NCBI RefSeq assembly: GCF_900143285.1
Contig: NZ_FRDN01000012.1
Coordinates: 74,819-138,818, forward strand
Length of the DNA stretch: 64,000 nucleotides
Source of the DNA: Desulfitobacterium chlororespirans DSM 11544
GTDB taxonomy: Bacteria; Bacillota; Desulfitobacteriia; Desulfitobacteriales; Desulfitobacteriaceae
Direction: 5' to 3'
The notes beneath the pieces are model-generated. The model had not been told where the DNA came from. It ran no database searches and was given only the letters and a program-made list of their open reading frames with translations. Position 1 is the stretch's first letter; each line of letters opens with the position of its first letter. Positions 4,182 to 60,486 of this stretch are shown here, in pieces. The translations under genes were made by a program, and so were the position numbers.

Positions 4182-5000
4182 GTGAGAATAAAGTGGCTTC
4201 CTATAACTATACTGTTATGCTCGCTTCTGCTGACAGGCTGTTCCAGCCAACCTCTGCAGGAACCCGAAAAATGGGCAATGGTTGAAGAGAAAGTCATGAC
4301 ATTCTCAGACGGGGAGAGCGTCAACTTATGGAGAAGAGGCCCCTTTGGGCATGCTGCCTACAAACTTTCGGATGAAACGACACTATTGCTCGTTCAGGAC
4401 CCAACCGGCCCGGCTAATGTTTATGTAGGTGGAGTGGAGAGTTTCGATGATTTGAGCGAACCTGCCCAGAGAGCTGTTGCTGCATTTTATGAGGAACAGG
4501 GCTTGCTCTACAACATCCCATCTGAACTGGAAAATGCCTATGCTGAATATCTGGCTTGCCAAGACAAGGGGACATTATTCCGTGAGCATTACATCAGTCA
4601 GGATATTGTTCCCACCGCGTCTAACGACAGCATAATATGCTTTCTTACATCGGTCATCCTTCCCATTAATGGGCAAATGGCCCAGGAAGTTCATTTAGGT
4701 GCGGTGTTCAGCCGGGAAACCGGAGAGGTGTTGAATAACTGGGAATTGTTCTCTTTACCGGAGGGCGAAGCACGGCAACGGCTTTTAGACACATTTGATA
4801 TTGGGGCTCCCGCTTTGCGGACTGAAATGCAAGCTGCATTGAAGCCGGAGTACATTATTTTGTTCCCCGATAATTTGGATGTTACATTTCCACGAGGAAC
4901 CCTGCCAAGCCAGGAAGACAGCTATAGTATAGGGATAAGCTATGACGAACTCCAAGGAGTGATTCAGACTTGGGCAATTCCTAATGCGGACGGAACATGA
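4182..5000 (+). CDS. Lipoprotein (signal peptide plus lipobox LLTGC), function unknown
   Basis: GTG start with RBS aagggagag 7 nt upstream; VRIKWLPITILLCSLLLTGCSS. Confidence 0.55.
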   Translation: MRIKWLPITILLCSLLLTGCSSQPLQEPEKWAMVEEKVMTFSDGESVNLWRRGPFGHAAYKLSDETTLLLVQDPTGPANVYVGGVESFDDLSEPAQRAVAAFYEEQGLLYNIPSELENAYAEYLACQDKGTLFREHYISQDIVPTASNDSIICFLTSVILPINGQMAQEVHLGAVFSRETGEVLNNWELFSLPEGEARQRLLDTFDIGAPALRTEMQAALKPEYIILFPDNLDVTFPRGTLPSQEDSYSIGISYDELQGVIQTWAIPNADGT

Positions 5001-5166: not shown

Positions 5167-6207
5167 ATGGCCGGTAACGATAAATTAAAAGCCCTGGATG
5201 CGGCTTTAAGTCAGATTGAAAAGCAATTTGGAAAAGGGTCGATTATGAGATTGGGGGAGGCTTCTGCCAAAATGGCAGTGGAAGTGATTCCGACAGGTTG
5301 CCTGGCCATTGATATAGCCCTTGGAGTAGGTGGAGTGCCTCGAGGACGTGTTATAGAAATCTATGGGCCTGAGTCATCCGGTAAGACCACCGTCGCCTTG
5401 CATATTGCGGCAGAAGCCCAGAAGCTGGGCGGTGTAGCCGCTTTTATCGATGCGGAGCATGCTCTCGATCCAGTCTATGCCAAGGCCTTAGGGGTCAACA
5501 TCGACAATCTTCTCGTATCCCAACCGGATACAGGTGAGCAGGCACTGGAGATTTGCGAAGCCTTAGTGCGCAGTGGGGCCATCGACGTCATCATCATTGA
5601 CTCTGTGGCGGCTCTTGTCCCTCGAGCAGAGATTGAAGGGGAAATGGGAGATTCTCATGTGGGCTTACACGCTCGCTTAATGTCTCAAGCCCTGAGAAAA
5701 TTGACAGGTGCCATCAGCAAGAGTCATACATGTGTCATTTTTATTAACCAGATTCGGGAAAAAGTAGGAATTATGTTTGGTAATCCAGAGACCACAACCG
5801 GTGGACGTGCTTTGAAATTCTATGCTTCCGTCCGTCTGGAAGTACGCCGTCAGGATACCTTGAAACAAGGTCAGGATATGATTGGCAACCGTACCAAAGT
5901 CAAGGTTGTTAAGAATAAAGTGGCTCCGCCCTTTAAACAAGCCGAATTTGACATTATGTACGGAGAAGGTATTTCCCGTGAAGGCAGCATGGTGGATGTG
6001 GGCGCTGAGTTAGATATCATTAATAAGTCCGGAGCTTGGTACTCCTATAAAGGTGAGCGCTTAGGTCAGGGAAGAGAGAATGTCAAGGAGTTTTTAAAGA
6101 AGAACCCTGAGATTGCCGCCGAAATCGAACAAGGGATCCGGGCCAGCATTGCTAATGTAAGCGCTCCGGTTGCCGAGGATGTCCAAGAGGAGCCGGAAGA
6201 CGTCTAA
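5167..6207 (+). CDS. recA: Recombinase RecA
   Basis: GSIMRLGE, Walker [18 protein letters not shown]; full-length 346 aa. Confidence 0.97.
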
Positions 6208-6208
6208 G

Positions 6209-6703
6209 ATGAAGGGTGCATTGGATGTCGCCTTAACCTATTTATCGAGAAGGATGCTGACACGCTGCGAGCTCAGCCAAAGGCTGACGAAGAAGGGCTT
6301 TCCAGGTCATGAGATCGAAGCTGCCATCGAGAGGCTTTTAGAATGGGGCTATCTCAGCGATCAGGAGTATGCCCGTGCTTATTGCCTCAGCAAGCAAACG
6401 AATTATGCCAAAAAGAAAATCAGCTATGATTTGAAAGGCCGGGGGATCGAGGAAGCTATCATAGAGCAGGCTTTGCGGGAAACCTATTCACCGGGACAGG
6501 AGGCGGAGCTTTGCCGAAAACATGCTCAAAGGCTTTGGGCTGAAGAATCCCGGCGCTGGGAGAGTACTTACCGGCATAAAAAGAGTTATGAGAAAATCCC
6601 CAGGGAACTTATGTTGAGACAGAAGGTCGGGCAAAAGCTTATGCAAAAAGGCTACCCTCAGGAAATGGTTTTTGAGATCCTTGAAGGGATAGTGAGGGAG
6701 TAA
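6209..6703 (+). CDS. recX: Recombination regulator RecX
   Basis: ATG 2 nt after the recA stop; MKGALDVALTYLSRRMLTRCEL RecX N-terminus. Confidence 0.85.
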   Translation: MKGALDVALTYLSRRMLTRCELSQRLTKKGFPGHEIEAAIERLLEWGYLSDQEYARAYCLSKQTNYAKKKISYDLKGRGIEEAIIEQALRETYSPGQEAELCRKHAQRLWAEESRRWESTYRHKKSYEKIPRELMLRQKVGQKLMQKGYPQEMVFEILEGIVRE

Positions 6704-56310: not shown

Positions 56311-57168
56311 TTATTCCTTGGCCGAAAGCTTTTCCTTAGGATAGGAGCCTAATAGTTTAGTGCTGACCCCTTTGTCTTTGAGAGCCCATAAAGCCTCCTG
56401 GATCGATGGGGAGAAGACATAGCCGTCAATGTCCACAAAGAACACATACTCGCCCAGCTTTTTCTTGGAAGGGCGGGACTCAATACGGCTTAAGTTAATA
56501 TTGCGCAGGGCAAATTCCTGAAGGGCATGGGCTAAGGCTCCGGGGGTATCTCCGGTAATGATTAAAAGGGATGTTTTATCCTCCTCATTCATCTCCGCAA
56601 GATGATGTCCTACAAAAATAAAACGGGTGGCATTGAGCATAGAGTCCTGAATTTTTTCTGATTTACAGTGTAAATTATAGATTTCCGCGGCGCGCCGGGG
56701 TCCGATAGCAGCCCAAGGCTGAGCGGGATTCTGGGCTATTTTCGTAACGGCTTCAGCGGTGCTAGGGCAAGATAATTGCTCGGCCTGAGCCAGATGAGTT
56801 TCCAGAAAATCACGGCACTGTCCCAAGGCTTGTTCATGGGAATAGACCTGCTCTATTTGAGCTAAATGAAGGGGCTGAGCGGTGATCAGGCATTGGTCCA
56901 CAGGGAATATAAATTCTCTCATGATATACAGACTTTCCGTCTGGCCTAACATATCCATGGTCACTCCCACCTGGCCCTCGGTGGAATTCTCCAGAGGGAC
57001 AAAGGCCCCTTCGATCTCCAGGTTTTGGCAGGCTATTAATAGTTTGGGAATGGTCGTAAAGGGCATAAGGTTCAGCGGCGGTTCCAATAGATCGGATTGA
57101 GTCGCTAAAAAGAGTTGAAGCGCTTCTTCAGAAAAGCTGCCTTTCGGCCCTAAATAGCCAATGTTCAT
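56311..57168 (-). CDS. pheA: Prephenate dehydratase (PDT plus ACT domain)
   Basis: MNIGYLGPKGSFSEEA; ESRP motif; C-terminal ACT domain. Confidence 0.9.
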   Translation of the reverse strand: MNIGYLGPKGSFSEEALQLFLATQSDLLEPPLNLMPFTTIPKLLIACQNLEIEGAFVPLENSTEGQVGVTMDMLGQTESLYIMREFIFPVDQCLITAQPLHLAQIEQVYSHEQALGQCRDFLETHLAQAEQLSCPSTAEAVTKIAQNPAQPWAAIGPRRAAEIYNLHCKSEKIQDSMLNATRFIFVGHHLAEMNEEDKTSLLIITGDTPGALAHALQEFALRNINLSRIESRPSKKKLGEYVFFVDIDGYVFSPSIQEALWALKDKGVSTKLLGSYPKEKLSAKE

Positions 57169-57184: not shown

Positions 57185-57490
57185 TCTTGCTCTCATTAGT
57201 AAATAAAAAAAGACTTACCTCACCCCTGAATAAGGGACGAGTTAAGTCACGCGGTACCACCCTTTTTGCTGTATGTACAACAGCCTCTCACATGATCCTG
57301 GAACGAATCAAGGCTCTTAACGGAAGCGGCCGGCATTCCCTACTTTAAGTTCAGGAACGCAACTCCGGAGTGAATATCTGTTACCAGCAACCACTAAAGC
57401 TTTCAGTCTCCGGCTTTAGTTCCCTGAAGGTCTGGGCTAACAGATGCTCTCTTTCATCGTTGTTGTTGATTTGGAAATTCGATTTTAACA
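57185..57490 (-). promoter_or_regulatory. T-box riboswitch leader controlling pheA (Phe specifier UUC)
   Basis: Minus-strand T-box AAAAAGGGUGGUACCGCG (plus 57250-57267), followed by terminator hairpin plus U7; AGAGAG stem-I box; CUUCA specifier context (plus 57426-57428). Confidence 0.75.
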
Positions 57491-57767: not shown

Positions 57768-59567
57768 ATGGAACAAGCTAAACTAAAAACACGTTCAGAA
57801 ATCTCTGAGCAATATAAATGGCATCTTGAGGATATTTTCCCTAGTGATCAAGCTTGGGAAGAGGAATTTCTTAAAGCTGAAAAGCTTTTGCAACGAGCTG
57901 AATCATTCCAAGGGCATTTGGGGGATAGTGCCGAAGCTTTGTTAACCTGCTTTGACTGGATGGATGAAGTGGGGCAAAGTGTAGGTGAAATCTACACCTA
58001 TGCACGGATGCGCCGGGATGAAGACAACCGGAATGCTTATTATCAGGCTTTGACGGATCGGGCCGGTGCTCTATCTGTCCGGGTGGGGAGTGCTTTAGCT
58101 TTTATAGTTCCGGAAATTCTCGCTTTGCCGGAAGGAAGACTCCGGGAATTCCGCAAAGCGAATGAAAAGATGGCCCTTTATGACCACGCCTTAGAAGATA
58201 TTTTGCGTAAACGTGAACATGTATTAAGTTCTCAAGAGGAAAAGTTACTGGCTGAAATGGGCGAGATAGCTGAAGGTCCCAGCACCATTTTTGGTATGGC
58301 CAATAACGCCGATCTTAAATTTCCCAGTATTAAGAATGAGCAGGATGAGGAAGTCGAGCTCACCAAAGGAAACTATATTCAGTTCATGGAAAGCGAAGAC
58401 CGGCGGGTGCGGCAAGAGGCTTTCGAAACCCTCTATGGCACCTACCAAAAACAAATTAATACCTGGGCGGCCATCCTTAACTCCAATATTAAAGGGGACG
58501 TTTTTTTCGCCAAGGCCAGGCGTTACCCTTCGGCCATTGAGGCTTCCTTAGATGATGATAAAGTTCCTTTAGGGGTCTATGATGCCTTGATCGATACCGT
58601 CCGTGAGTTTTTGCCGGAGATGCATCGCTATGTAAAGCTGAGAAAGAAGGCCTTGGGGCTGGACGAACTACATATGTATGATATTTATGTTCCCATTGTC
58701 TCAGAGGTCAAGATGACGATTCCTTATCAGGAAGCCGTGGCGATGTGCCGGGAGGGGCTCAAACCCTTAGGCTCAGACTATGGCAAGGTCTTGGAAGAAG
58801 GGTTCACTTCCCACTGGATTGATGTCTATGAAAACCAGGGGAAAACCAGCGGTGCCTATTCTTGGGGGACCTACCGTTCCCACCCTTATGTGCTGCTCAA
58901 TCATCAGGATACGTTAGATTCGATGTTTACGATTGCCCATGAGATGGGGCATTCCCTCCATACCTATTTTTCCAATCGCACTCAGCCTCATATCTATGCC
59001 GGTTACAAGATTTTCGTGGCTGAAGTGGCCTCTACTCTCAATGAAGCTCTGGTGATGGACCATTTGCTCAAAACCACGGAAGATCCCAAGTTATTGGCCT
59101 ATTTGCTGAACCATTATCTGGAGCAGTTCAGAGGCACTGTTTTCCGTCAGACCATGTTTGCGGAATTTGAAAAGAAAACCCATGCTCTGGTGGAACAAGG
59201 TGAAGCTCTCACCGCAGAATTGTTATCCAGCACCTATCTTAAGCTTAATGAGGATTACTATGGACCGGATGTGGTGATGGACCCGCAAATTGCTATTGAA
59301 TGGGCCAGAATCCCTCATTTTTACAATGCTTTTTATGTTTATAAATATGCCACAGGGTTCTCGGCAGCTACGGCTTTAGCGAGGAAGATTCTTGATGAAG
59401 GGGAGCCGGCTGTGGAGCGCTATCTCGAATTCCTGTCCAGCGGCAGCTCCGATTATCCGATCGAATTGCTGCGCAAGGCTGGTGTGGATATGGAGACGCC
59501 GGTGCCGGTAAGGGAGGCTTTGCAGGTCTTTACGAGCCTGTTGGATCGGTTGGAGGGGCTGCTTTAA
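57768..59567 (+). CDS. pepF: Oligoendopeptidase F (M3B)
   Basis: ATG 7 nt after aaggaggg; HEMGH zinc motif. Confidence 0.9.
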   Translation: MEQAKLKTRSEISEQYKWHLEDIFPSDQAWEEEFLKAEKLLQRAESFQGHLGDSAEALLTCFDWMDEVGQSVGEIYTYARMRRDEDNRNAYYQALTDRAGALSVRVGSALAFIVPEILALPEGRLREFRKANEKMALYDHALEDILRKREHVLSSQEEKLLAEMGEIAEGPSTIFGMANNADLKFPSIKNEQDEEVELTKGNYIQFMESEDRRVRQEAFETLYGTYQKQINTWAAILNSNIKGDVFFAKARRYPSAIEASLDDDKVPLGVYDALIDTVREFLPEMHRYVKLRKKALGLDELHMYDIYVPIVSEVKMTIPYQEAVAMCREGLKPLGSDYGKVLEEGFTSHWIDVYENQGKTSGAYSWGTYRSHPYVLLNHQDTLDSMFTIAHEMGHSLHTYFSNRTQPHIYAGYKIFVAEVASTLNEALVMDHLLKTTEDPKLLAYLLNHYLEQFRGTVFRQTMFAEFEKKTHALVEQGEALTAELLSSTYLKLNEDYYGPDVVMDPQIAIEWARIPHFYNAFYVYKYATGFSAATALARKILDEGEPAVERYLEFLSSGSSDYPIELLRKAGVDMETPVPVREALQVFTSLLDRLEGLL

Positions 59568-59669
59568 GCTGAGTCTCCGGAGGTATCCGGAAGTCTTCAG
59601 GATTGCCCGGAAGCCGATTCTTCAGGATTGCCCGGAAGTTGAGTCTCCAGAATTTTGCTTTACACCGGT

Positions 59670-60440
59670 CGCTCCATAAGCTGCGCGGACAAAACTAACG
59701 CGAAAAGCCCGCCGCTCCGTCGGGTGCACCTGCGCCGCTAAGCAGCTTTCTGTGGCGTGGCGGCTTGGGCGAAACCCTCGTCCGGGTTTCGTGGCCAAAT
59801 CGCTCCTGCTCAATGGCCGGTTGGAAACGTCCTGTTTCCAACCCGACTCCGCAGCGGGCTTTTCGCGAAGTTTTGTTTCCGCTCGCTTAAATTCGCTTCC
59901 CTAGTGTAAATCAAAATCCTTGGGCCGTTTTTCGGGTCTGGGTGAGCAGAGCGTTGTAGGAAGTGCGGAGTAAATTGCCCTGCTCTAGCCGCCTTTTCCG
60001 TCTTTACCGACGCCGCTATAGCGGCGGGGTCGGCGATCAAGCAAGGCTCTGAAGGAGGGATGAACTGACCCGACCCCCGGAAATGCCTTGCAAAAAACGT
60101 CAGGCCTCGGGCTTCCCAAACCTCTAGACCCCAGGGGAAGGCTGAAAGAAACCCGCAAGCAGTAGCTTTGCGCACAAAAGCGAAACGGATTTAGCGGAGG
60201 GGCGGTCAGATCAACGAAGCTTTCTTAACTTAGCGGAGCCACGGTTCACATCAGGTATTACCCTGAGGTTTGGCGTAGCTGTTAAGAAAGCGAGTTGACC
60301 AGCCCTGGAGCTATGGAGTGAGCGTTGTGCGTAAAGCTACGCGACCCGGACAATCGGACAACTCGGACAACCAAGCGCGCCCTCCGCCGATGCGCCCCCA
60401 TAGGCACAAACACCCGCCCCAAAATCTATGCTATAAAAGA
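59670..60440. other. GC-rich ORF-free island with nested long-range complementarity; candidate structured ncRNA or cryptic element, strand unknown
   Basis: See finding; perfect complementary segments 59699-59712 / 59854-59867 and 60219-60229 / 60281-60291 enclose perfect local hairpins. Confidence 0.3.
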
Positions 60441-60486
60441 ACTCAGCTCTACACGCTGACTCGCAGAAAGAAAGGAAGAAAAGATC

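Follow-up and report, generated by a model that had tools for sequence, protein, structure and literature searches.

The pepF–apbC spacer of Desulfitobacterium chlororespirans raises the question of what a GC-rich stretch of 919 nt without an evident gene (positions 59568-60486, hereafter the island) is doing between these two genes. An earlier note on the same DNA, a 64-kb stretch here called the window, had proposed "a large structured ncRNA or a cryptic inserted element". The island consists of two to three piled-up copies, on opposite strands, of a single dispersed repeat that is non-coding and ~200-300 nt long. The structure and, closely, the inserted-element alternative of that proposal were thus borne out, and the single large ncRNA was not.

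Composition and complementarity of the island

The island has a GC content of 55.7%, compared with 46.9% for the window, and holds no plus-strand ORF of 60 aa or more, as the earlier note had described; ORFs of 63 and 121 aa (the latter at 59810-60175) lie antisense. All the repeats and hairpins reported in that note were found where it had placed them. The exact complement 59699-59712 / 59854-59867 extends into 27-nt arms (59699-59725 / 59841-59867) that are 85% complementary, and a further outer pair, missing from the note, was located at 59649-59665 / 59904-59920. The local hairpin 59819-59828 / 59834-59843 is perfect, and that at 59770-59791 (cgaaaccc/gggtttcg) is likewise present. The distant pair 60219-60229 / 60281-60291, also perfect, is enclosed by a 16-nt pair of 94% complementarity (60162-60177 / 60325-60340) that had previously escaped notice. 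Direct repeats comprise a 25-nt unit occurring twice at 59594-59643 and three occurrences of CGGACAA at 60347-60370. When folded as a whole, the 919 nt yielded z = -6.5 for the plus strand and z = -7.3 for the minus strand against dinucleotide shuffles, with 0 of 20 shuffles folding as well. Since the features were confirmed at their coordinates and the folding surpassed that of the shuffles, the complementarity is real and not due to chance. The pairs that had been read as closing nested multi-hairpin domains do exist; each is no more than the long imperfect hairpin of one unit, together with its optional hairpin modules.

Units and copies of the repeat family

Each unit consists of a short leader and a rod of ~180 nt, which is an imperfect hairpin with purine-rich, near-symmetrical internal loops, five sites for optional hairpin modules and the invariant apex GGUUCACAU-N9-10-CCCWGAGGUU. 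Across the family, rods are 180-400 nt long; their arms vary and the apex is conserved. The order within the island is an inverted copy (59640-59945), leader modules together with what is probably a truncated third copy, and an intact copy (60145-60354); by a covariance model, both halves belong to the family. The parts are as follows.

59568-59648, minus strand: variable tail past the 3' end of the inverted copy, with a 25-nt tandem repeat (59594-59618 and 59619-59643)
59566-59581 and 59636-59651: 16-nt repeat in or at the variable tail, from the repeat search
59640-59945, minus strand: inverted copy with a degenerate apex, from the covariance model match of its D. hafniense orthologue
59649-59920, minus strand: rod of the inverted copy, with arms 59649-59665 / 59904-59920 and 59699-59725 / 59841-59867
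59731-59793, minus strand: optional 63-nt hairpin module inside the inverted copy, holding cgaaaccc/gggtttcg and seen as an alignment indel
59921-59945, minus strand: 5' leader of the inverted copy (reverse complement CCCAGACCCGAAAAACGGCCCAA, with the leader motif AGACCCGAAA)
59946-60002, plus strand: candidate 3'-arm remnant of a truncated copy, with GAGCGTTGT at 59949-59957, a 9-mer that recurs at 60320-60328
60003-60060, plus strand: "hp2"-like leader module, consisting of TTTTCC, the hairpin CCGACGCCGC-TATA-GCGGCGGGGTCGG (60007-60033) and then GGCTCTGAAGG
60061-60144, plus strand: fast-evolving linker and leader, with CTGACCCGACCCCC (60065-60078) and AGACCCC (60126-60132)
60145-60354, plus strand: intact class A copy, with leader (GAAACCCGCAAG), 180-nt rod and tail
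60162-60177 / 60325-60340 (P1) and 60219-60229 / 60281-60291 (inner), plus strand: helices of the intact copy, by complementarity
60243-60274, plus strand: invariant apex of the intact copy (GGTTCACATCAGGTATTACCCTGAGGTTTGGC)
60355-60415, plus strand: 3' tail, with CGGACAA(C/T) three times (within 60347-60370) and then a degenerate hp2-like C-rich CCCTCCGCCGATGCGCCCCCATAGGCAC
60416-60486, plus strand: apbC promoter-like sequence and ribosome-binding region (AAAATCTATGCTATAAAAG; GAAAGGAAG), outside the repeat

The intact copy scored 204.8 bits (E ~1e-48) with covariance model R1, being itself among the 13 sequences used to build that model, and its minimum free energy is -85.1 kcal/mol (z = -7.6) for the plus strand, compared with -73.7 kcal/mol for the minus strand. 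In the inverted copy, the hairpin GGTTGGAAAC...GTTTCCAACC (59819-59843) takes the place of the universal apex motif. Its D. hafniense orthologue (L001 5857-6089, minus strand) was matched by R1 with 31-33 bits (E 3e-6 to 1e-8), and the leader corresponds to model positions 1-14 in that alignment; the window's own inverted copy reached a mere 6.8 bits because of its 63-nt insert. This module is present in the window and in strain PCE1, missing from D. hafniense, and homologous to an optional insert found after ...GAGGTTTGGC in further family copies, among them L045, L005, L017, L021 and L025. The outer stem of the inverted copy differs between the window and PCE1 by compensatory changes (ACAAAACT/AGTTTTGT to GCAATCT/AGATTGC).

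Among the flanking parts, the leader consensus of class A copies is AGACCCGAAAG, and the hp2-like module of the island, which includes a perfect 16-nt palindrome (60011-60026), matches their TTTTCA-hairpin-CTACYCNGAAAA module, with the CTAC motif degenerate here. In 11 of 19 motif occurrences across 1.17 Mb, that module preceded a class A rod on the same strand by 26-90 nt. Class A rods are flanked by GACCC motifs, which belong to the element rather than to the target, since they are conserved between copies. The 3' tail resembles the GACCCGAAC-GACCCC-TTTTCATCCTCTGATGGCGC..GCGGCAT tail of other class A copies. By its resemblance to the P1 3' strand and tail of intact copies, the segment 59946-60002, which is weakly conserved (63% identity to PCE1), is probably the remnant of a truncated plus-strand copy.

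The PepF encoded in the window is 100% identical to that of D. chlororespirans, and an exact look-up of its ApbC returned no record. The island occurs only in the hafniense/chlororespirans/PCE1 clade, with homologues of 840-900 nt in D. hafniense and PCE1. The corresponding spacer is only 55-157 nt long in D. dichloroeliminans and four metagenomic relatives, whose PepF proteins are 79-92% identical, and the island is a clade-specific insertion into an ancestrally short pepF–apbC spacer. The insertion boundaries are not definable from the empty spacers L007 and L152 because the flanks are too diverged; at L151, the contig stops 88 nt past pepF. In the comparison with PCE1, the rods of the intact and inverted copies are 92% and 81.5% identical, respectively, and evolve more slowly than synonymous sites (63-74% at 4-fold degenerate positions). 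The linkers change as fast as neutral sequence or faster, and carry large indels: the segment 60061-60144 is 48% identical to PCE1, with large deletions, and 68-88% identical to D. hafniense, and the variable tail at 59568-59648 is among the least conserved parts (70-74% identity to both, large indels). The 3' tail (60355-60415) shows 72-84% identity to the relatives. The apbC promoter-like and ribosome-binding region is conserved in D. hafniense and PCE1; its reading as a candidate extended -10 promoter comes from sequence inspection.

A 20-mer from the most conserved block of the island (CACATCAGGTATTACCCTGA) was found at 16 genome loci, all from Desulfosporosinus or Desulfitobacterium and with at most three per genome, and a looser apex pattern at 120 or more metagenome loci. 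When the first 80 of these apex-pattern loci were searched with model R1, 64 matches were confirmed (E <= 1e-3); 94 matches at E < 1e-6 came from 100 mixed genome, metagenome and window sources. One copy adjoins glmS, whose product is 100% identical to GlmS of a Dethiobacter MAG. Contigs of one sample held at least about 13 copies, and 98% identical paralogues were found on separate contigs of one sample. Truncation is frequent among the copies, as are tandem or divergent pile-ups; among adjacent copies, ten are divergent, six tandem and none convergent. The family is present in many copies per genome, as single, tandem or divergent units in intergenic spacers of Desulfitobacterium, Desulfosporosinus and Dethiobacter. 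No second copy was found elsewhere within the 64-kb window.

The family appears to be uncatalogued. The earlier note had proposed a scan against Rfam, which returned no relevant family: with Rfam 15 at gathering thresholds, the only hit in the window was a T-box (57230-57466); at E <= 10, the segment 59450-60600 yielded only chance matches to eukaryotic lncRNAs and miRNAs of at most 17 bits; and nothing was detected at the copies in the 16 genome loci. The families scanned included OLE, GOLLD, ROOL, raiA, HEARO, 6S, group II intron domains, riboswitches and self-cleaving ribozymes. A blastn search (word size 11) of 72,556 plasmid and 50,697 phage records gave no match to the island, the 20-mer was missing from IMG/VR, and the looser pattern occurred in two viral contigs, where the model matched none of the pattern sites. 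No repeat or ncRNA of such kind from Desulfitobacterium or Desulfosporosinus was found in the literature searched.

The helices that the earlier note had drawn from one sequence proved to covary strongly in sets of 13, 94 and 36 copies. In the 13 sequences, 25 of 55 pairs showed compensatory changes. Among the 94 copies, double changes occurred at 50 of the 55 pairs, 90.3% of cells were paired (61.3% in shuffles), and the covariation score was 0.614, compared with 0.18 for shuffled and 0.05-0.08 for slid alignments. A model-free MAFFT alignment of 36 non-redundant copies recovered the inner helices, in which compensation was seen at 19 of 24 pairs. The fold is kept by compensatory mutations beyond relatedness, as is characteristic of a structured RNA or single-stranded DNA element.

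Several motif assignments were tried and dropped by inspection. For a hairpin ribozyme loop B (GUAUAUUAC, compared with the apex GGUAUUACC), the topology is wrong and the apex hairpin lacks conservation. A hammerhead core, a tRNA T-arm mimic, 6S RNA, an integron attC site, sigma-54 or ECF promoters in the leader, a pT181-type nick site (GGCTACTCT) in hp2 and an ssoA CS-6 (TAGCGT) were set aside for lack of fit, and a rod-plus-U-tract terminator on the minus strand fitted only class A leaders.

Mobile repeat, RNA gene family or inert palindromes

We favour, with a probability of roughly 0.55, the reading of the island as a clade-specific pile-up of structured interspersed repeats belonging to a candidate mobile or repeat family. 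Such a family would act like a mobile or repeat element of the ERIC/BOX/bcr1 kind, whose units would duplicate into intergenic spacers, often beside existing copies. The units would act single-stranded, as RNA or ssDNA, with the GGTTCACAT strand as the putative structured strand; the apex would be a likely docking site for a trans-acting factor, and selection would keep the rod foldable locus by locus. At pepF–apbC, the copies may merely have lengthened the spacer, and no role in apbC control need be assumed because the apbC promoter-like sequence and ribosome-binding site lie downstream of them. A published category of "mobile-repeat sequence candidates" is defined by multiple copies per genome, inconsistent orientation relative to the neighbours, and frequent transposase, integrase, nuclease or helicase genes nearby (PMC11109978). 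The family shares the copy number and the inconsistent orientation but not the gene association: beside the copies, 275 neighbouring ORFs included no recurrent transposase, integrase, reverse transcriptase, nuclease or helicase gene, no recurrent Y1-transposase-like neighbour and no RAYT gene. Their clustering revealed only housekeeping families of orthologous loci. Repeat-like traits are the lack of a conserved neighbouring protein, the occurrence of both orientations, the divergent or tandem placement of adjacent copies, the scarcity of attached sigma-70-like promoters and simple terminators, and the empty Rfam searches; the covariation, the excess of G.U over A.C, the tandem G.A pairs and the better folding of the plus strand also speak for this reading. 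Against it, besides the missing mobility genes, the unit ends lack terminal inverted repeats, the conserved 5' leader (25-70 nt) having no inverted 3' counterpart, and no target-site duplication was found; mobility and transcription are both putative. Moreover, the conserved part is the apex and not the termini, the reverse of MITEs and REPINs. A host-useful RNA would account for the slow rods, and for an apex that does not vary between two Bacillota classes, no less well than selfish DNA would.

These last points lead to the foremost alternative, which we regard as a serious possibility albeit a doubtful one: a family of trans-acting or ribozyme-like ncRNA genes that offer the apex to a conserved partner, with one functional gene in the island (60145-60354) and decayed paralogues around it. 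The very strong covariation, the invariance of the apex from Desulfitobacteriaceae to Dethiobacter, and the optional modules at fixed sites, as in many functional RNAs, all argue for it. The same applies to the purine-rich loops, the tandem G.A pairs and the excess of G.U over A.C on one strand (about 2:1 in well-paired helices), to the better folding of the plus strand (63 of 89 copies), and to orthologous copies that are more conserved than 4-fold sites. Some insertion sites are, in addition, kept across species, for example in the dnaK–dnaJ spacer. Its weakness lies in expression. Of 81 copies, two had a sigma-70-like promoter upstream, and none had a simple terminator (hairpin plus T-run) downstream; a strict sigma-70 scan of the island gave no site with both hexamers, and neither any of the 81 copies nor the island combined its own sigma-70-like promoter with a simple terminator, as an independent sRNA or ncRNA gene should. 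The 62 copies with both neighbours called comprised 37 antisense to a co-directional pair, 11 sense, 11 convergent and 3 divergent; since in 37 of the 48 co-directional contexts the structured strand runs antisense to its neighbouring genes, read-through would mostly make the other strand. Finally, the copy number within one sample, the truncations and the pile-ups are unusual for bacterial ncRNA genes.

A broader proposal, put forward more tentatively still, is that the family constitutes a new, widespread, multi-copy class of structured nucleic acid in spore-forming anaerobic Bacillota (Desulfitobacteriia and Dethiobacteria), either a functional RNA or a hairpin-dependent mobile element. If so, the rod would display the invariant apex, and an RNA version might be protein-sequestering or self-processing, made from tandem or divergent arrays; a mobile version would represent a new hairpin-dependent kind, with a mobilising enzyme not yet known.

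It is unlikely that the units are DNA-level quasi-palindromes devoid of single-stranded function, that is, inert MITE-like debris whose arms are matched by template-switch correction in replication. Both strands do fold far better than shuffles, transcription signals are lacking, units lie in either orientation, and over all modelled pairs G.U (130) about equals A.C (123). Leaving out two pseudo-pairs of the apex and two pairs at the termini, however, changes the counts to 86 G.U and 42 A.C, and a tally of the inner helices only gives about 79 and 23. Template switching would, furthermore, erase the strand-asymmetric, conserved internal loops with their purines and tandem G.A pairs. Also against this reading are a non-palindromic apex of 25-30 nt that is invariant across classes and rods that are more constrained than synonymous sites.

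The reading of the whole 0.9 kb as one large structured ncRNA of the OLE/GOLLD/ROOL type, or as a long 5' leader of apbC, is contradicted and retains very little probability. The whole-region fold and the conservation of the block in D. hafniense and PCE1 speak for it, but Rfam is empty even at E <= 10, the island splits into units on opposite strands, and the linkers drift as described above. The earlier note had itself held that dispersed copies, or absence of the spacer from close relatives, would count against a single ncRNA, and both were found: the unit is a dispersed multi-copy repeat, and relatives that retain pepF–apbC synteny have spacers of 55-157 nt instead. The riboswitch-like apbC leader that the note also suggested fails likewise, given those relatives without the island, the unrelated genes that adjoin copies elsewhere, the varied orientation of those copies, and the promoter-like box downstream of the units. 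As to a decayed or cryptic small protein gene, such as one in the 63- or 121-aa antisense ORF, we give it practically no credence: Pfam gave no match (E <= 1) for any island ORF tested, the 121-aa ORF is interrupted in D. hafniense, leaving 58-59 aa, and missing from PCE1, no reading frame is conserved among the three genomes, the indels are not multiples of three, and covarying hairpins explain the sequence.

The pile-up of repeats explains a conspicuous GC-rich "orphan" island and indicates that long GC-rich spacers in such genomes can be piles of one repeat, a point that bears on pipelines for ncRNA discovery in which intergenic regions are ranked on their length and GC content. The family is unusually well supported, with 50 of 55 pairs covarying, at least 120 loci and two Bacillota classes. 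It combines an invariant apex, variable arms, optional modules, constraint above that of synonymous sites, mostly antisense placement and divergent pairing, and this odd combination makes it a good test case for asking whether such repeats are domesticated RNA, selfish DNA or both at once. The covariance model and the apex pattern provide a direct handle for annotating Desulfitobacterium, Desulfosporosinus and Dethiobacter genomes and for experiments.

Comparison with known systems

OLE, GOLLD, ROOL and raiA, with HEARO as an exception, are typically limited to one or a few copies per genome and have characteristic gene neighbours. The island shares with OLE, GOLLD, ROOL and raiA/HEARO a long GC-rich intergenic region with many covarying helices in an anaerobic Firmicute, but it has no covariance-model match to them and consists of simple multi-copy rods of ~200 nt on both strands, not of a multi-domain RNA of 500-800 nt. 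Like MITEs, the units are non-coding, multi-copy, intergenic and variable among relatives, form single-strand hairpins, and include nested and truncated copies; unlike in MITEs, their ends are not mutual inverted repeats, no target-site duplication or related autonomous IS was found, and the copies are old, divergent and constrained.

REPs span 20-40 nt and REPINs roughly 100 nt, whereas the rods described here span 180-400 nt. Shared with the REP/REPIN-RAYT system are dispersed GC-rich palindromes with frequent head-to-head dimers that are thought to act as single-stranded hairpins (PMC3733652). Within the family, only the small hp2 leader hairpin precedes a CTAC, which is complementary to the GTAG tag; a survey of GTAG/CGTC REPs reported none from Firmicutes, a phylum that it did not cover (PMC3733652). 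Conservation in REPINs falls on the arms, which are the REPs, and leaves the apex free; here the reverse holds.

Closer parallels, drawn by description only, are found in the Firmicutes and the Enterobacteriaceae. BOX of Streptococcus pneumoniae and bcr1 of the Bacillus cereus group are modular Firmicute repeats with tens of intergenic copies, for which the mobilising enzyme is unknown. They share with the family the modular build, the optional modules or tandem sub-units, and a stable predicted single-strand structure. BOX is assembled from boxA, boxB and boxC modules, in contrast to the single long rod found here, and bcr1 has a TTTAT target duplication, of which no counterpart was found. 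ERIC/IRU elements are intergenic imperfect palindromes of ~130-200 bp that lie in either orientation, carry fixed-site inserts in some copies and encode no transposase of their own. They belong to another phylum, and a relation in sequence is not to be expected; the rods of the family are longer, with a conserved 5' leader and no TA-type target duplication seen, and it is the apex rather than the whole element that is invariant. Nevertheless, ERIC/IRU and the family have in common cross-genus conservation, hairpin-preserving substitutions, and enlarged copies that arise through inserts at fixed sites.

Composition and anatomy of the pepF–apbC island

The 919-nt spacer between pepF and apbC (59568–60486; hereafter the island) was inspected for composition, complementarity and folding, and what had been observed from its sequence is confirmed. 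The island contains 55.7% GC compared with 46.9% for the window, has no ORF of 60 aa or more on the plus strand, and has, on either strand, a far more stable fold than its dinucleotide shuffles (z = −6.5 and −7.3). The exact 14-nt complement between 59699–59712 and 59854–59867 belongs to 27-nt arms of 85% complementarity, with an additional outer pair at 59649–59665/59904–59920, and the local hairpins at 59770–59791 and 59819–59843 were both found. The 11-nt pair 60219–60229/60281–60291 is perfect and is enclosed by a 16-nt pair (60162–60177/60325–60340, 94%) missing from the earlier note. The direct repeats are likewise present (25 nt ×2 at 59594–59643; CGGACAA ×3 at 60347–60370). Such short tandem repeats gather at unit edges, and others were observed in the upstream flanks of related copies among the genome and metagenome loci fetched for comparison (L001–L151), comprising CTCTA ×5 (L140), heptamer arrays (L145), a run of ~22 C (L065) and 17-mers (L013).

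The long-range pairs, read earlier as nested within one RNA, are real stems, but they form two separate rods with optional modules. Each rod is a ~180-nt imperfect hairpin of a repeat unit with an invariant tip (the apex), a 5′ leader and a 3′ tail. Copies were scored with R1, a covariance model built from 13 of them.

Features of the island, in window coordinates
Left half of the island, minus strand: second copy, whose D. hafniense orthologue matches R1
59731–59793: optional 63-nt module in the inverted copy, homologous to an insert directly after ...GAGGTTTGGC, at the same position, in other copies
59819–59843: hairpin replacing the universal apex in the inverted copy
59921–59945: leader of the inverted copy
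59946–60002, plus strand: putative 3′ arm of a truncated copy, with GAGCGTTGT in common with 60320–60328
60003–60060: hp2 leader module, degenerate here
60145–60354, plus strand: intact copy, R1 204.8 bits (the copy belongs to the set from which R1 was built)
3′ of the intact rod: CGGACAA repeats, then a degenerate hp2-like segment
3′ of that segment: conserved AAAATCTATGCTATAAAAG box and the apbC RBS

The inverted copy escapes R1 in the window only because of its 63-nt module; the D. hafniense orthologue (L001 5857–6089, minus strand) scores 31–33 bits, with rough E-values of 3e-6 to 1e-8. By resemblance, 59946–60002 may be the remnant of a truncated plus-strand copy. The hp2 module (TTTTCA-hairpin-CTACYCNGAAAA) was located 26–90 nt upstream of rods of class A, the subfamily of the intact copy, in 11 of its 19 occurrences in 1.17 Mb. 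Repeated CGTTCC-N-AGCC motifs are contained in the leader.

The Rfam scan advised in the earlier note, here against Rfam 15, returned nothing credible for the island even at E ≤ 10. The only match in the whole window was a T-box leader (RF00230, 114 bits, 57230–57466, minus strand), upstream of a prephenate dehydratase-like gene (56311–57168, minus strand) divergent from pepF. Island ORFs had no match in Pfam, plasmid and phage collections held no DNA similar to the island, and no second island copy was found in the window. A 121-aa antisense ORF was rejected as a real gene, being interrupted in D. hafniense and missing in Desulfitobacterium sp. PCE1. Of note, a TwoAYGGAY RNA (RF01731, 46 bits) on a Desulfosporosinus MAG contig (L015 5264–5421) is unrelated to the repeat.

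A dispersed family of covarying rods

A 20-mer from the island's best-conserved block (60243–60274) was used as the query in a scan covering one genome per species, which yielded 16 loci, all from Desulfosporosinus or Desulfitobacterium, with at most three per genome. D. hafniense, D. chlororespirans and D. dehalogenans were all missing from its output, although the D. hafniense and PCE1 loci retrieved by protein look-up contain the exact 20-mer; masking or the choice of representative genomes may be the cause. About 180 nt around the 20-mer could be aligned between loci, with obvious compensatory changes (GTAGCTTTGCGCACA/TGTGCGTAAAGCTAC versus GGAGCTTCACCCACA/TGTGGGCGAAGCTCC, and GCTTTCTTAAC/GTTAAGAAAGC versus GTTTGCGTAGGA/TCCCACGCAAAC), and R1 detected extra copies lacking the exact 20-mer within the same loci. 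A degenerate apex pattern, GGTTCACATN{9,10}CCNGAGGTT, matched at least 120 metagenome contigs; in IMG/VR it matched two contigs only, neither with an R1 match at the pattern site. The first 80 metagenome loci gave 64 R1 matches, and a mixed set of 100 sources gave 94 at E < 1e-6, these E-values being rough as the model was calibrated quickly. Dispersal on this scale, at 16 genome loci and at least 120 metagenome contigs, is what the earlier note had held would speak against its proposal. Paralogues of 98% identity sit on separate contigs of one sample. One copy (L062) adjoins glmS, and the encoded GlmS matches that of a Dethiobacter MAG at 100% identity; the family therefore extends past the Desulfitobacteriaceae.

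From the 13 copies, RNAalifold returned a single rod of 55 pairs, with double changes in 25. In the 94 copies, aligned by fitting to R1 itself, standard pairs occupy 90.3% of pair cells (61.3% when shuffled), both-sided changes occur at 50 of the 55 pairs, and the covariation score is 0.614, compared with 0.18 for shuffled and 0.05–0.08 for slid partners. In a model-free MAFFT alignment of 36 copies, with mutual identities below 88%, the inner helices reappeared, and 19 of 24 pairs were compensated. The helices proposed earlier thus covary. Compensatory evolution maintains the structure of the repeat, which constitutes a family without a matching Rfam model.

The apex consensus is GGUUCACAU-N9-10-CCCWGAGGUU, in which the flanking motifs were imposed by the search pattern, leaving the third C and the fixed spacing as the sole independent observations. 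Read on the minus strand (window 60274–60243), it becomes AACCUCWGGG-N8-9-AUGUGAACC, with GGG placed 8–9 nt ahead of an invariant AUG-UGA start-stop, which is probably a coincidence. Conservation of the window copy's small apical hairpin does not extend to other subfamilies. Optional hairpin modules occur at five positions and are common to copies of different genera. The unit shared by paralogues reaches 25–70 nt 5′ and 25–55 nt 3′ of the rod, and no terminal inverted repeats were found in it.

Insertion, constraint and strand

PepF of the window shares 100% identity with the protein of D. chlororespirans. A homologous island of 840–900 nt separates the same genes in D. hafniense strains and PCE1, whole-hairpin indels being the main difference between these islands and that of the window. 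In other relatives the spacer is AT-rich and measures 106 nt (D. dichloroeliminans), 55–118 nt (three metagenomic Desulfitobacterium relatives) or 157 nt (a relative with 92% identical PepF), and in strain AusDCA an unrelated gene occupies the interval. The short spacer is therefore ancestral, and the island is a clade-specific insertion in D. chlororespirans, D. hafniense and PCE1; its absence from relatives with spacers of 55–157 nt again runs counter to the earlier proposal. The AusDCA gene (L009 5922–7433) encodes 503 aa on the opposite strand with a weak Spermine_synth match, and its presence makes the spacer a recurrent insertion site. A metagenomic contig of a relative with 87% identical PepF (L151) ends at 4888, 88 nt past pepF, an assembly break of the kind expected if a repeat comes next.

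Between the window and PCE1, identity at 4-fold degenerate positions in pepF and apbC is 63–74%, compared with 92% for the intact rod, 81.5% for the inverted rod and 48–63% for the linkers. Against D. hafniense, the values are 84–87% for 4-fold sites, 93–96% for the rods and 68–88% for the linkers. Constraint in place therefore acts on both rods but not on the linkers.

Over all modelled pairs, G.U (130) and A.C (123) are about equally frequent, the A.C cells coming mostly from two apex "pairs", unreal in most subfamilies, and two terminal pairs; well-paired helices hold 86 G.U versus 42 A.C, and inner helices, by our own tally, ~79 versus ~23. Tandem G.A/A.G occurs in about half of the copies, and unpaired columns are 59% purine. 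Of 89 copies, 63 fold better as the GGTTCACAT strand, with a mean gain of 4 kcal/mol (−85.1 versus −73.7 kcal/mol for the intact window copy). This suggests that the strand acts single-stranded, as RNA or ssDNA, although the bias is modest.

Genomic setting and interpretation

Genes adjoining the copies are ordinary housekeeping genes, and no transposase, reverse transcriptase or nuclease gene recurred beside them. In a single case, a 419-aa ORF ~2.2 kb from a copy (L103 1132–2391) carries a CGIDVHK motif, as is typical of IS110-family transposases. Among the 62 copies with both neighbours called, from the 94 of L013–L150, 37 have their better-folding strand antisense to two co-directional neighbours and 11 have it sense, while another 11 follow the same-strand gene of a convergent pair and three lie in divergent pairs; adjacent copies are divergent in 10 cases, tandem in six and convergent in none. 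Orientation and pairing counts both include uncollapsed orthologous loci, which enter the orientation figures more than once. The antisense excess could reflect selection against the better-folding strand in mRNAs or a replication-related bias. Divergent neighbours have their 5′ ends facing, 118–457 nt apart. Copy pairs were observed at window 59640–60354 and in L022, L023, L017, L035, L044, L081, L095 and L108, several joining different subfamilies (class A and a GC-rich "E" type). A sigma-70-like promoter was present upstream of two of 81 copies, without enrichment, and a simple terminator downstream of none of the 81; neither signal was found within the island. In Desulfosporosinus dnaK–dnaJ spacers, the stop codon of dnaK comes before the family copies, and a clear terminator on the gene strand, a hairpin with a T-run, comes after them (for example, L026 ~5400–5445, minus strand). 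At these loci the dnaK 3′ UTR would include the structured strand's reverse complement.

The island is a pile-up, specific to this lineage, of copies of a structured non-coding repeat with a dispersed distribution. We favour, with a probability of roughly 0.55, a mobile or repeat element of the ERIC/BOX/bcr1 type, whose way of working we infer: new copies would arise in intergenic spacers, often next to existing ones, and the element would act as a single-stranded rod with an apex bound by a trans-acting factor. A true multi-copy ncRNA family, the main rival, is distinctly less probable: the deeply conserved apex and a rod constraint exceeding that of synonymous sites favour it, whereas transcription signals are missing, placement is mostly antisense and the clusters resemble debris. 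A purely DNA-level quasi-palindrome would agree with the lack of signals, but strand-asymmetric loops and an invariant, non-palindromic apex render it improbable. The single large RNA proposed earlier, or an apbC leader, is contradicted by separate rods of a dispersed repeat on opposite strands and is very improbable, and a decayed gene, also contradicted, is even less credible.

The conserved bulge (G)GCTACTCT of hp2 adjoins the hairpin (for example, L005 ~6190–6230, L095 ~1330–1412, L063 ~5790–5862), an arrangement resembling the nick site of pT181-type Rep, and hp2 also contains CTAC, which complements the GTAG tag of REP elements. This is a hint, not evidence, that hp2 might be the substrate of an HUH enzyme.
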